The notes beneath the pieces were generated by a model. That model ran no database searches, was not told the DNA's origin, and saw nothing but the letters and a program-made list of their open reading frames with translations. Positions 3,091 through 62,755 of a stretch of DNA of 64,000 bases are shown one piece after another (the stretch's first letter is position 1; the number at the start of each line of letters is the position of its first letter). The DNA is taken from assembly GCA_951406725.2 (NCBI GenBank), contig OX597843.1, positions 4,650,001 through 4,714,000 on the forward strand, read 5' to 3'. The DNA is from Octopus vulgaris. Taxonomy: Eukaryota. A program made the translations under genes and the position numbers.

Positions 3091-3400
3091 CTCATGTGTG
3101 TTCAGTTCCCAGAGTTGATTCGTGAGAATCACTCGAATGGAATTAATTCGCCAAATAAAGAATATAACACGCTCTGATTCATGAAGTAGGCAGCGATTTT
3201 AGAAGGGTACAAATACTCACACACACCTATATACATATGTATTCATTTGCCTGTACTAAGGTATATGTGTATATATAAAAACACCAGATGGAGTTCAGTG
3301 GAACACAAAGGTGATATAGAAATCAATATATATATATATATACAATTCTCTTTTATAGTAATTTTTGTAATTCTCAGCTGATTAAAGTTAAGGAATGTAC

Positions 3401-36666: not shown

Positions 36667-37830
36667 TATATAAAGCTGAAGTTGTCTGCGTATGGCAGGT
36701 TTGGTAGCCTTCAACTAACACTATCTCCTCCAAGACCCTGCGGCACATCATCATCATCGTTTAACGTCCGCTTTCCATGCTAGCATGGGTTGGACGGTTC
36801 AACTGGGGTCTGGGGAGCCCGAAGGCTGCACCAAGCCAGTCAGATCTGGCAGTGTTTCTACAGCTGGATGCCCTTCCTAACGCCAACCACTCCGAGAGTG
36901 TAGTGGGTGATTTTATGTGCCAGCGACACAGGTGCCAGACAAGGCTGGCGAACGGCCACGCTCAGATGGTGTTTTTTACGTGCCACCGGCACAAGTTGAC
37001 CAAAATTGAGAGTATGATAGAAGAAGGCTTGCTCTTCTTTCCTAAGAAGGAAAAATTCAAATCAGACCATGCTAACACCAAAAATTATTTACATCAAAAA
37101 GGTGCTTTTTTTCCTATGAAAATCCCTATTTTTTACGATTTATAAAGCTGAAGTTGTCTGTGTATGGTAGGTTTGGTAGCCTTCAACTAAAACTATCTCC
37201 TCCAAGACCCTGCGGCGCAAGTTGACCAAAATTGAGAGTATGATAGAAGAAGGCTTGCTCTTCCTTCCGTAGAAGAAAAAATTCAAATCAGACCATGCTA
37301 ACACCAAAAATTATTTACATCAAAAAGGTGCTTTTTTTCCTATGAAAATCCCTATTTTTTACGATTTATAAAGCTGAAGTTGTCTGTGTATGGTAGGTTT
37401 GGTAGCCTTCAACTAAAACTATCTCCTCCAAGACCCTGCGGCGCAAGTTGACCAAAATTGAGAGTATGATAGAAGAAGGCTTGCTCTTCCTTCCGTAGAA
37501 GAAAAAATTCAAATCAGACCATGCTAACACCAAAAATTATTTACATCAAAAAGGTGCTTTTTTTCCTATGAAAATCCCTATTTTTTATGATTTCTAAAGC
37601 TGAAGTTGTCTGTGTATGGCAGGTTTGGTAGCCTTCAACTAAAACTATCTCCTCCAAGACCCTGCGGCGCAAGTTGACCAAAATTGAGAGTATGATAGAA
37701 GAAGGCTTGCTCTTCCTTCCGTAGAAGAAAAAATTCAAAACGGATCATGTTAACACCAAAAATTATTTACATCAAAAAGGTGCTTTTTTTTTCTTTGAAA
37801 ATCCCTATTTTTTACGATTAATTGACTGCT
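36667..37830 (+). repeat. 226-bp tandem repeat x4 of a probable Helitron 5' region; first unit interrupted by a SINE
   Basis: taaagctgaagttgtctg at 36671, 37143, 37369 and 37595. The start resembles the element at 3416. The insert is flanked by CGGCACA (36741-36747, 36987-36993). Confidence 0.75.
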
Positions 37831-50970: not shown

Positions 50971-51020
<50 letters not shown>

Positions 51021-51027
51021 ATGTATG

Positions 51028-51087
<60 letters not shown>

Positions 51088-51177
51088 GGGGTGTGTATAA
51101 GGCAGAGTTTGGTCTACTTTGGGTGAGATTTTTAATTAACGACTGTCGATGACACATACACAGATGTGTGTGTATAC

Positions 51178-51234
<57 letters not shown>

Positions 51235-51324
51235 ACACAAATATAGTGATGTGTATAAAGATATAGATGAATAATATAGAGACGCATATACATAAATACA
51301 TATATGTATAGAGGAGTGTGTATG

Positions 51325-51357
<33 letters not shown>

Positions 51358-51418
51358 ATACTTATATGTGTACGTATATATATATATGTGTGTGTCTGTA
51401 TACTTATATATGTGTATG

Positions 51419-51462
<44 letters not shown>

Positions 51463-51552
51463 GGGGTGTGTATAAGGCAGAGTTTGGTCTACTTTGGGTG
51501 AGATTTTTAATTAACGACTGTCGATGACACATACACAGATGTGTGTGTATAC

Positions 51553-51607
<55 letters not shown>

Positions 51608-51697
51608 ACACAAATATAGTGATGTGTATAAAGATATAGATGAATAATATAGAGACGCATATACATAAATACATATATGTATAGAGGAGTGTGTATG

Positions 51698-51730
<33 letters not shown>

Positions 51731-51830
51731 ATACTTATATGTGTACGTATATATATATATGTGTGTGTCTGTATACTTATATATGTGTATGTATATATAT
51801 ATATATGTGTGTGTGTGTGTATACTTATAT
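50970..51830. repeat. Direct duplication of about 375 bp embedded in microsatellite DNA
   Basis: Unique core gggggtgtgtataaggcagagtttggtctactttgggtgag..gtcgatgacac at about 51087 and 51462. Confidence 0.85.
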
Positions 51831-53151: not shown

Positions 53152-53569
53152 CATGTACGCATGCATACACATATATATGTGCGTGTATATACTTGTATAC
53201 ACTACGTATTAACACAGATATACGTATACACTCCTATATAAACATACGTATAAATATATACTGTTTCTCTCTCACAGTTAGATATATATAGACAGATATA
53301 CTCTCCTATAAGTATATAACTATATATACATACATGCAGCAAACCCATACATACAGTCATTATATACAGTATTATCATTATATATATATATATATATTCA
53401 CAGCATATAGAATATATACACAACACATACACTATACACGCTATAAACATACATATATATATATATACATACACCCACAGATACCAACCCCATACATACA
53501 CTATATATACACTATATATATAATATACAGTCTATACAATACACCATATACTATATATAATTTATATAC

Positions 53570-53658
53570 ACGATCCTTGGCGTAACAGTTTGACAATTCT
53601 TTGGCCCCCGGCGTATACACACCATATATGACATATAATTTCATATACACAGTAGTAT

Positions 53659-53708
<50 letters not shown>

Positions 53709-55465
53709 TTATCCTTACTGTAGGGGCTGTCAATTCCTTAACATCGGTGTGTTTATATATATATATATATACACACACAAAATGCAAGATTATACATACA
53801 TTGTGGGGGTGTATCAACATTACCCTTAGTGTAAATGCAGGCCAATTTCTCAGCCTATGGCGTGTATACACCATATATATATACATATATACACACACAT
53901 ATACACCATATACAATATACGCATACGATATAATATACAAACACAAGATAATATAAATATATATACACATATACACAGTATGAGATGGTGTATATATGAA
54001 TGTGTCTTATCCTTAATGTAAAGTGCTGGGTAGTTCCTTAGCCCCCCGGCATATATACACCATATATACACAGCATATAGAATATACACATCGTATACTA
54101 AAATACGAGTATATACACAGTTTAATCACAGAGATGTGTATATTTGTTACCCTTAGTGTAAAGTGTTGGGCATTTCTTTAGCCACCGGCGTGTCCAAGCC
54201 ATACATAAGAAAAATACACACACACATATATACATGTATATATATATATATATATACAATATACACACCATATAGAATATATATACATCGTATACAAACA
54301 CAAGCTTATATATAATGCCTATATACACACCGTATAATACATATTTATGTATATACGTTATCCTTACTGTAAAGTCCTGGGTGATCCTTTAGCCCCCGGC
54401 GTGAACTAACCATACATATAAATATGTAATATATATATATATACACACACCAGACAGAATATACACATCGTATACAAACACAAGCTTATATATATATATA
54501 TATACACACCATATAACACATATATATGTATATACGTTATCCTTACTGTAAAGTCCTGGGCGAGCCTTTTGCCCCCCGGCATCTACTAACCCTACATATA
54601 AATATATAATATATATATACAATATACACACCAGATAGAATATACACATCGTATACAAACACAAGCTGATATATAATGCCTATATACACACCGTATAATA
54701 CATATGTATATACGTTATCCTTACTGTAAAGTCCTGGGTAATCCTTTAGGCCCCCCGGCGTGTACTAACCATACATATAAATATATAATATATATATATA
54801 CAATATACACACCAGACAGAATATATACATCGTATACAAACACAAGCTGAAATAGATATATATATATATACACCATATAACACATATATATATATGTATA
54901 TATGCTATCCTTACTGTTAAGTCCTGGGTGATCCTTTTGCCCCCCGGCGTGAACTAACCATACATAAAAATATATAATATATATATATATATATACACAA
55001 TATACACACCAGACAGAATATACACATTGTATACAAACACAAGCTTATATATAATGCCTATATACACACCGTATAATACATATATATATATATATATATG
55101 TTATCCTTACTGTGAAGTCCTGGGCAATCCTTTTGCCCCCCGGCATCTACTAACCATACATATAAATATATATATATACACACCAGACAGAATATACACA
55201 TTGTATACAAACACAAGCTGAAATAGAGATATGTATATACACCATAACACACACACATATATATATATGTATATACGTTATCCTTACTGTAAAGTCCTAG
55301 GCGATCCTTTAGGCCCCCCCGGCATCTACTAACCATACATATAAATATATAATATATATATATATGTGTATATATATACACACCAGACAGAATATACACA
55401 TCGTATACAAACACAAGCTGAAACAGATATATGCACAGAGAATAAATGATGTATATATACGTTAC
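53570..55465 (-). repeat. Tandem array (about 11 units, roughly 110-210 bp period) of decayed copies of the PEDS1 exon 3' end and donor
   Basis: Recurrent + strand motif gtta(t/c)cctta(c/g)tgtaaagt..ggg..cctt..gcccccggc near 53570, 53707, 53819, 54006, 54145, 54356, 54535, 54713, 54903, 55099 and 55276, resembling the real exon end gttacccttggtgtaaaggctggccagttccttggccccggc (55461-55503). Confidence 0.85.
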
Positions 55466-55616
55466 CCTTGGTGTAAAGGCTGGCCAGTTCCTTGGCCCCG
55501 GCGTGCTGTGGACCCCAACGGGGTTTCCGTTCCTTTTCGGCGAACAAACTGTTAGAATTGGGGTCATCTTCTAACATAGAATAACGTAAGATCTGCTCCT
55601 CTGACTTTTCGCACAT
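55466..55616 (-). CDS. PEDS1: First coding exon of plasmanylethanolamine desaturase 1 (TMEM189/Kua)
   Basis: The ATG at 55616 opens MCEKSEEQILRYSMLEDDPNSNSLFAEKERKPRWGPQHAGAKELASLYTK-G (50 codons + 1 nt), ending at the donor AAGG|gtaacg. RWGPQHAGAKELASLY matches the N-terminal motif I recall for TMEM189 (RWGAQHAGARELAALYSPG), and the phase-1 intron falls at the equivalent Gly. Confidence 0.88.
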
Positions 55617-56645
55617 CTTCCCGTCCACCACCACCACCAATACCACTAAGAATACCACTGGTACTACCACCGATGACACCACTAGCAGTAGGTATAGGTA
55701 TAGGTATGGCAATGATGATGGTAGTAGTAGTAATAACGGGTGATCGTAGTAACGGGTGATCGGGAGGTGGTGTCCGTTCCTTCTTGCTTTGCGTTTGACG
55801 GTCTTAAATGCTTTTGACGGTCTTAAGTGTTAATAATGTTTGTTATTGGTGCTGGGGCGGATAATGTTGGTGTTTGGCGATAATGCTGGTTCTGACTGAC
55901 TGCCTGTCAGTCGGTCTGTGTGCTGGTCTGCTTGTCTGTGTGTCTGTCTGCCTGTCAGTCCGTCTTCTCTGATGCCTGGTGGTGATGATGAGAAGAAGAA
56001 GGAACGAGAGAAAAAAAAAGACGACGGAGAGGAAAGATAGGAGAGAGAGAGAAAGAAAGAAAGAAAAGGCAAGAGTGTGAGAGAGATAGAGAGAGAGAGA
56101 TAGACTGAGGGAGGGAGACACACTCACTCACTCACTGACAGAGGCGAAGCGGCCACGACCACCACTACGACGGGGAAGGAGGAAAGACGAAGAAGAAGAA
56201 AAACAAGTAGCAAGCAGTGAGGTTCGACTAGAGAGACTGAGAGAGACACACTCACTCACTCACTCAGAGGCGGGGCAGCCACGACCACCACCACGACGGG
56301 GAAGGAGGGAAGACGAAGAAGAAGACGAAGAAGAAGAAGTAGCAAGCAGCGAGACTCGACTATGACTATCACTGCTATTGCTACGGCGACTACGACTTAA
56401 GACCACGACGACAACGACTACGACCACCGCTATGACAACGACTGCCGCCGCTGCTGCTGCTGCTGCTGCTGCTGTTGCGACGATCACTATGACGATTACG
56501 ACGACGACGGGCACCACCTCCGCCGCCGCCACCACCACGACTACTACGGTAATTGCTACGGACGGCGGCGGCGAACGGAAACAACCGAAAAAACACACAC
56601 AACCAGCGCTTCGCAGTTAATGCTGTGCTTCATAGCCATTGGTTA
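55617..56645 (-). promoter_or_regulatory. Putative PEDS1 5'UTR and CpG-rich promoter/TSS region
   Basis: The most CpG/GC-rich segment in the window (ACG/GCC/GCT triplet repeats, about 56140-56620), directly upstream of the ATG. CCAAT on the minus strand at 56638-56642 and an abrupt switch to AT-rich DNA above it. Candidate UTR intron with GTGAGT donors near 56130/56260 and a polypyrimidine-CAG acceptor at 55976-55978. Confidence 0.5.
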
Positions 56646-61204: not shown

Positions 61205-62755
61205 CATTAGGAGTAATTGATAGCTTTCGTTACCTAGGTGATGTAATTACCCGGGGAAGTGGTTGCTCTGAAAGTATGGTTGCTAGGGTGAGAACTGATT
61301 GGAGAACGTTAACTAACACTACCACTGTTCAAAAGAAAGACCTTTTCTCTAAAAGGGAAGGGTAGAGTGTATGACACTTATTTCTTTACTACCCACAAGG
61401 GGCTAAATACAGAGGGGACAAACAAGGACTGACAAAGGGATTAAGTCGATTACACTGAGCCCAGTGCTTAACTGGTACTTAATTTATCGACCCCGAAAGG
61501 ATGAAAGGCAAAGTCAACCACAGTGGAATTTGAACTCAGAACGTAGCGGCAGACGAAATACCTATTTCTTTACTACCCACAAGGGGCTAAATACAGAGGG
61601 GACAAACAAGGACTGACAAAGGGATTAAGTCGATTACACTGAGCCCAGTGTGTAACTGGTACTTATTTAATCGACCCCGAAAAGATGAAAGGCAAAGTCA
61701 ACCTCGGCGGAATTTGAACTCAGAACCTAACGGCAGACGAAATACCTATTTCTTTATTACCCACAAGGGGCTAAACACAGAGGGGACAAACAAGGACAGA
61801 CAAACGGATTAAGTCGATTACATCGACCCCAGTGCTTAACTGGTACTTAATTTAATCGACCCTGAAAGGATGAAAGGCAAAGTCGACCTCGGCGGTATTT
61901 GAACTCAGAACCTAGCGGCAGACGAAATACCTATTTCTTTACTACCCACAAGGGGCTAAATACAGAGGGGACGAACAAGGACAGACAAACGGATTAAGTC
62001 GATTACATCAACCCCAGTGCGTAACTGGTACTTATTTAATCAACCCCGAAAAGATGAAAGGCAAAGTTGGCCTCGGTGGAATTTGAACTCAGAACGTAGA
62101 CGAAATACCACTAAGTATTTCGCCTAGCATGCTAACGTTTCTTATTTCTTTACTACCCACAAGGGGCTAAACACAGAGAGGACAAACAAGGACAGACAAG
62201 GGGATTAACTCGATTACATTGACCCCAGTGTGTAACTGGTACTTATTTAATCGACCCTGAAAATATGAAAGGCAAAGTCGACCTCGGCGGAATTTGAACT
62301 CAGAACGTAACGGCAGACGAAATACCGCTAAGCATTTCGCCCGACGCGCTAACGTTTCTGCCAGCTTGCCGCCTTCACAAGTGTATGACACTCAAGAAAG
62401 AAATGCACTACTGAATAGTAGTGAGACAGGGGCCTTGAATGCAGAGGACCCGAGAAGCAAGGATGACCTGCTGGATGTGTAATGTAAGTGTGCATGAAAA
62501 TTGGTCATAAGATGAATCAGATGTTCTGTGCAAGAAAGAAGACTGAATTGGTAAGGACATGTGATGCATATGGATGAGGACTGCTGTATAAAAAAGTGGC
62601 TGATCCTTAAATGTAGTTGGAGCTTGTGGAAGAGGAAGATCCAGAAAGACAAGGGATGAAAGATGACCTTAGGATCTTGAGCCTCGCAGAGGAAATGATG
62701 AAGGATTGGGATATCTGGTGATATGAGGTTCTCAAAATGATGTGCTCTCCTTGAT
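61205..62755 (+). mobile_element. Old RTE LINE remnant split by a SINE array
   Basis: VIDSFRYLGDVI..GCSESMVARVR before the array. LLNSSETGAL and GHVMHMDED-like remnants after it. Confidence 0.6.
61379..62379 (-). mobile_element. Tandem array (5 units of about 185 bp) of a second SINE family within one TSD
   Basis: Repeated tatttctttactacccacaaggggctaaa..gaactcagaac..gacgaaatac, flanked by a 13-bp direct repeat AGTGTATGACACT (61366-61378, 62380-62392). Relatives at 45541-45772 (-), 27470-28070 (+), 30938-31142 (+) and 2267-2390 (+). Confidence 0.8.

Follow-up and report, generated by a model that had tools for sequence, protein, structure and literature searches.

How does an intron come to open with a ladder of copies of the exon end and 5' splice site that precede it, and do those copies matter to the gene? 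The question is raised by a 64-kb stretch of Octopus vulgaris DNA, here called the window. A preliminary description of it noticed about 11 decayed copies of the end of a PEDS1 exon and its donor at the start of that exon's own intron, and supposed either that changes killing the donor were favoured or that one dead unit was amplified. We conclude that ordinary local duplication probably produced the array of 11 copies, which is most likely neutral; the RNA-type contigs splice at the original donor.

The gene is indeed PEDS1. Protein comparison identifies the 50-residue minus-strand frame at 55616–55467 as the N-terminus of PEDS1/TMEM189, a protein that we take to act in plasmalogen synthesis. 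Exon 1 is 96% identical to P0002, which carries Pfam domain PF10520 and which shares a cluster with an Argonauta protein and with XP_029652872.1 (P0050) of Octopus sinensis; many of the matches are named plasmanylethanolamine desaturase. Proteins of the PEDS1/TMEM189 kind are marked by a RWGPQHAGA-type motif near the N-terminus, ahead of the PF10520 lipid desaturase domain, and the octopus gene agrees with this through exon 1 and through a spliced continuation that matches P0050. Searches with tblastn, using P0002, P0004, P0018, P0050 and P0051 as queries, returned exon 1 and its copies only, and no later PEDS1 exon within the 64-kb window; intron 1 is therefore likely to be longer than 55 kb. 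In the O. sinensis protein model P0050 the conserved exon 1 is missing, and residues 1–60 form an unrelated N-terminus with no match in the window; the length of the intron has probably led to an error in that model.

The real donor, belonging to the unit called U0 below, reads AAGG/GTAACG (the slash marks the exon–intron junction). Among 47 related animal PEDS1 loci, a set with many near-duplicates, GT stands at the same intron position in 41, at least one of which (L021) reads on as coding sequence; of the remainder, one has GC there and five read on without an intron. The position of intron 1 is thus evidently old, judging from these alignments. The octopus donor lacks a G at +5, as donors of this intron commonly do in the other animals of the set. 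At locus L027, near position 3114, GCAAGT replaces GT at the same position, and a GC–AG intron is likely.

We searched both strands of the window with a 50-nt probe consisting of the exon end and donor. Exactly 11 further copies were found, all on the minus strand between 55325 and 53565, with scores of 38–60, while the best score elsewhere in the window, on either strand, was 28. When the 40 exonic bases alone were compared with 1000 dinucleotide shuffles, nine of the 11 copies scored above every shuffle; the weakest, U2 and U5, were reached by one and by eight shuffles respectively. The number of copies first given is borne out, and their origin from an exon–intron junction is supported. Each unit comprises the last 40 nt of exon 1, rather than the approximately 45 nt first estimated, the donor, and about 140 nt of intron start. 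The copies are separated by spacers, as described, yet these are not plain (TA/CA)-rich filler: they derive from the first ∼140 nt of the intron. Start-to-start spacing, from U0 outwards, is 180, 178, 196, 189, 179, 180, 211, 139, 189, 113 and 136 bp, and TRF gives the array a period of 177–196. An origin of the copies from mRNA was considered and rejected, since they run on into intron and not into exon 2 sequence. The features are collected in Table 1.

Table 1. PEDS1 exon 1, intron 1 and the units of the array (positions in the window; +1 is the first intron base of the donor or dead site).
Feature	Positions	Strand	+1 position	Shifted GTAAG	Remarks
PEDS1/TMEM189 exon 1, coding part (50 codons plus one base, phase-1 end)	55466–55616	−			Protein match; RNA-type contigs over 55462–55900
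PEDS1 intron 1, portion within the window	1–55465	−			No later exon in window
U0, founding unit	55326–55505	−	55465		Last 40 nt of exon, real donor AGG/GTAACG, first ∼140 nt of intron 1
U1–U6, young expansion of dead unit	54193–55325	−	55281, 55104, 54908, 54718, 54540, 54361	55287, 55110, 54914, 54724, 54546, 54367	AAGG/AT, each with ACA/GTAAG 6 nt upstream
U7, old copy with GT	54054–54192	−	54150		AGG/GTAACA; 34 of 40 exon bases kept
U8, old dead copy	53865–54053	−	54010
U9, old copy with GT	53752–53864	−	53823		AGG/GTAATG
U10, old dead copy	53616–53751	−	53712	53718	3' half like U1, U4, U5 and U6, including the shifted GTAAG
U11, dead copy farthest from the exon	53440–53615	−	53574		With decayed spacer

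Nine of the 11 copies have lost the donor GT. The loss had been described as mostly to AAGG/AT; it is so in all nine. As had also been noticed, GT is kept in two copies only, U7 (AAGG/GTAACA) and U9 (AAGG/GTAATG). The AAGG and the T at +2 are intact in all 11, but over positions −3 to +6 none is identical to the donor, U7 and U9 differing at +5 or +6. In seven dead copies (U1–U6 and U10) CC has become GT at −6/−5, giving ACA/GTAAG 6 nt upstream of the dead site. Apart from these seven shifted sites the array has no GTAAG; its density of the motif is 3.67 per kb, versus 0.78 per kb in the intron downstream, an enrichment that is explained by the copying of units. As the preliminary description stated of the six proximal copies, the cores of U1–U6 resemble each other (78–93%) more than they resemble the exon (65–71%). 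By pairwise projection, 26–31 of the 40 exon bases are kept in U1–U6 and 28–34 in U7–U11; pairwise differences among the copies range from 7% to 50%. Most of the differences from the exon that many copies have in common, among them GCC and GCT, ACC and ACT, CTG and TTG, and AAG and AAA, are synonymous, a class expected to make up 24% of random changes and 36% of transitions. This after-the-fact hint raises the idea that the exon itself may have drifted since the first duplication, the copies recording its older state.

The intronic part of the units points to two layers. Positions +46 to +85 of the intron in U0 match U1–U5 at 38–39 of 40 bases, U6 at 36 and U7–U11 at 18–33, whereas positions +11 to +45 match U1–U6 at 23–28 of 35, and here the old units do as well (21–27 of 35). 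This pattern places the boundary of the young layer downstream of the live donor: the young expansion evidently copied a block that began about 45 nt into the intron and carried a dead core, and the live donor was, on these matches, never included. The spacers alternate, with the motif GGCATT common to U2, U4 and U6, and the cores pair roughly as U1/U4, U2/U5 and U3/U6, which together suggest that unequal exchange shaped U1–U6. U10 is identical to U1, U4, U5 and U6 from −10 to +7. No branch is starred in the 12-row unit tree. Built without the +1 column, the tree requires the donor state to change three times, a single change being found in 0% of 200 bootstrap trees; a single origin of donor loss is not rejected (p-AU 0.105), and with the +1 column included 13% give a single change. 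The U1–U6 clade is broken by U8 in the free tree, yet is not rejected (p-AU 0.262). Read in this way the nine donor losses are one to three events, too few to show selection, so that selection for donor killing is not needed. Of the two histories first proposed, the amplification of a dead unit is supported for U1–U6, and the favouring of donor-killing changes is not required.

Contigs from four of the 24 listed runs were aligned to the region 53705–55900, outside which U11 lies. Repeat stretches at 53705–53981, 54205–54270, 54416–54633 and one more, containing U9 and several of the shifted sites, were skipped. Relative to the window, two of the runs (X4, organism B, and X6, organism C) show the same synonymous change at 55527, change at 55617, three intronic changes and 19-nt deletion at 55794. 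In the window a 19-bp sequence of the transcribed 5' leader is duplicated in tandem at 55790–55826; organisms B and C have a single copy of it. The DNA of both contains cores of the proximal type: among the pieces listed there are five from X4 and a single one from X6, each differing at 4–8 letters. No difference is listed at the dead +1 or at the shifted GT, the latter in U4- and U6-type pieces. One X4 contig is altered at −1 of the dead site, another at −1 of the shifted site, and the cover of X4 and X6 lies outside U7. By this comparison the dead unit predates the split of organism A from organisms B and C, with no orthology of single units implied.

The other two runs, X7 and X8, come from two studies; their RNA type is guessed, none of the listed runs being recorded as RNA, and they were picked for the largest share, that is, selected for intronic words. 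In both, a contig (1550 and 1604 nt respectively) follows exon 1 and departs from the window sequence at 55462. When read by hand, its loose end goes on in frame as GKRYQELICLYV, identical to P0050 at the start of exon 2, just past the divergent N-terminus of that protein. Exon 2, like intron 1, begins GTAA, which accounts for the 4-base overrun, and the only GT-compatible cut is at 55465. The mRNA contigs thus use the real, most upstream donor; contigs show the presence of an isoform, not its exclusivity, and rare forms are dropped. The spliced junction at 55465–55462 itself resembles the donor, and aligners may misplace it. Depth in the bin 55407–55480 is 7.38 in X7 and 4.13 in X8, against 7.39 and 4.13 from the spliced contig alone, and no read-through contig at the real donor was seen in either run, although a gap in contig cover does not prove absence. 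Contigs at 54012–54204 (depth 4.4) and 54033–54204 (depth 2.9), in X7 and X8, run unspliced across the U7 donor and may represent pre-mRNA or DNA. Among the matches listed in the two contig sets there are no joints, and no junction from an alternative donor occurs outside the skipped repeats and with NMD unblocked.

Alternative 5' splice-site choice can be coupled to nonsense-mediated decay (NMD). Here an in-frame read-through stop lies at 55331–55329, 41–1610 nt upstream of all nine candidate donors, so use of any downstream donor would bring a premature stop, and NMD is predicted. We scored the sites by the energy of their duplex with what we take to be the U1 5'-end motif, a crude stand-in for a splice-site model in which pairing may be out of register. 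The predicted values are −7.3 kcal/mol for the real donor, −6.2 for U9, −5.9 for U7 and −5.0 for the shifted sites; in register, the shifted sites have seven matches versus five plus one wobble for the real donor. The score of the real donor is equalled or bettered by 13 of 188 GT sites within the array and by 137 of 3911 in the intron beyond it, and by this measure donor look-alikes are common in this intron. The initial proposal that U7 and U9 act as cryptic or decoy donors, or trigger NMD, finds no support in this evidence: 55465 is used, U7 is crossed unspliced, and both sites are weaker in predicted U1 pairing. Rare or NMD-degraded use of the two is possible, because contigs drop rare isoforms, NMD would deplete them, and U9 lies in a skipped stretch.

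Could the array have been shaped by what it must not contain? Duplication would then have been accidental, but live copies near the exon would have been harmful, since their use adds a stop, and only a dead unit could expand there. This reading, compatible with neutral duplication and not exclusive of it, is one that we consider possible though rather unlikely. The six nearest copies are all dead, the live U7 and U9 being 1315 and 1642 nt away, but U1–U6 represent one event, and with three of the five old copies dead a dead template is unremarkable. The tree needs up to three losses; all, however, are one transition and not varied changes at +1 or +2. Every alternative donor would lead to the stop described above, yet the dead copies gained GTAAG. 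The lack of a +5 G in the real donor speaks for this reading, but many of the other animals lack it at this intron too, and human F7 tolerates 4–8 identical live copies (Borensztajn et al., 2006; PMC1557585).

It is improbable that the array has become a regulator, in which the shifted GTAAG sites of U1–U6 and U10, or U7 and U9, would bind U1 snRNP and tune PEDS1 through diversion to NMD, as decoys or by protecting the long intron. Seven ACA/GTAAG sites do lie within 1.8 kb of the donor, but the copying of units explains their enrichment and their predicted U1 duplex is weaker than that of the real donor. The GT of the U4- and U6-type pieces shows no listed difference in organisms B and C, and proximal copies are used in human 6-16 and CBS (as summarised in PMC1557585); the mRNA contigs of two studies, however, use the real donor, and other contigs run across U7 unspliced. 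AATAAA is absent from the array and the next 3 kb, and one ATTAAA occurs in the array. Slimmer still is the chance that the donor-dead unit with its shifted GTAAG was amplified as a U1-binding battery that tunes PEDS1 through decay or by shielding the start of the 55-kb-plus intron; if true, the gene would have turned the end of one of its own exons into a regulator of splicing. That the array is an assembly artefact, or a transposon fragment merely resembling the exon, is hardly credible, for although the region is very repeat-rich, no contig spans the whole array and the probe search was limited to the 64-kb window, the copies differ by 7–50%, pieces of them are present in DNA and RNA-type runs that are independent and bear three organism labels, the probe matches nowhere else in the 64 kb, and the similarity extends over the conserved end of a coding exon and a donor of ancient origin.

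Neutral local duplication has the setting in its favour. Apart from this array, TRF reports 19 other non-simple tandem arrays in the window with periods of 60–373 bp (overlapping rows merged, one simple array left out), so an array that caught an exon end needs no special cause. These arrays lie between 4822 and 63276 and several are recent, for example 36987–37819 (period 226, 97% match) and 51012–51820 (period 373, 97%); another occupies 61379–62326 (period 184/369). Just upstream of exon 1, in the likely promoter region, a 126-bp tandem duplication at 56111–56362 lies beside GA, CTG and GAA simple repeats. None of the 47 animal PEDS1 loci, examined over 113–2999 nt downstream each, has an exon-end copy scoring above 26, versus 28–48 for the octopus copies. 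A literature search, which covered few subscription journals, found no paper on an octopus PEDS1 array.

Under neutral duplication, the first copies would go back to an old duplication of ∼180 bp that began 40 nt within the exon, and the G to A change at +1 would have arisen between one and three times. The dead unit, with a boundary ∼45 nt into the intron, would then have been multiplied by unequal crossing-over in the TA-rich spacers; as this boundary lies beyond the live donor, the live donor would not have been recopied. The remaining donor-like sites are likely silent, the first donor met being taken, by analogy with human F7. Several observations count against neutrality: the same G to A change at +1 is found in all nine dead copies, and the free tree with its three changes leaves repeated loss possible; GTAAG was gained in seven copies; the dead unit persists in organisms B and C; downstream copies are used in human 6-16 and CBS; and the RNA check consists of the contigs of two runs.

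As a probably neutral relic the array matters little, being a late, decayed stage of junction-spanning repeats. It shows a dead unit re-amplified next to a live donor, and offers a natural substrate on which first-come choice of donors could be tested in a cephalopod whose first intron is probably > 55 kb long. Larger import would follow only if the shifted GTAAG sites, or U7 and U9, regulate PEDS1.

Minisatellites whose first unit lies across an exon–intron boundary are described for human F7 and summarised for 6-16, CBS, LMNB2 and PDGF in Borensztajn et al. (2006; PMC1557585). The 37-bp VNTR of F7 intron 7 has 5–9 units with four exonic bases each and identical pseudo-donors, which can function yet are outcompeted by the upstream site. 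The octopus array is like it in that the first unit spans the boundary, the donor region is repeated into the intron, and splicing proceeds mainly from the most upstream donor (both RNA-type runs). Unlike F7, its units are 113–211 bp long, hold 40 exonic bases, are much diverged and fall into an old and a young layer, and nine of 11 lack GT. LMNB2 (100-bp unit, 10–15 copies) and PDGF intron 4 (81-bp unit, 16–18 copies) are closer in having longer junction-spanning units, and there, as in F7, the real donor alone is used; these, however, are described as exact donor repeats, whereas the octopus units are decayed and mostly dead. In 6-16 intron 2 and CBS intron 13, also junction-spanning arrays, two further downstream copies serve as donors as well, and no such use is seen in the octopus contigs. 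Exact repetition of the donor (none of 11 copies) and a unit of 37–100 bp (here the spacing is 113–211 bp and the TRF period 177–196) are both wanting, and we therefore file the octopus array as a decayed variant of the junction-spanning minisatellites and not as a member of the class, alike in origin and outcome.
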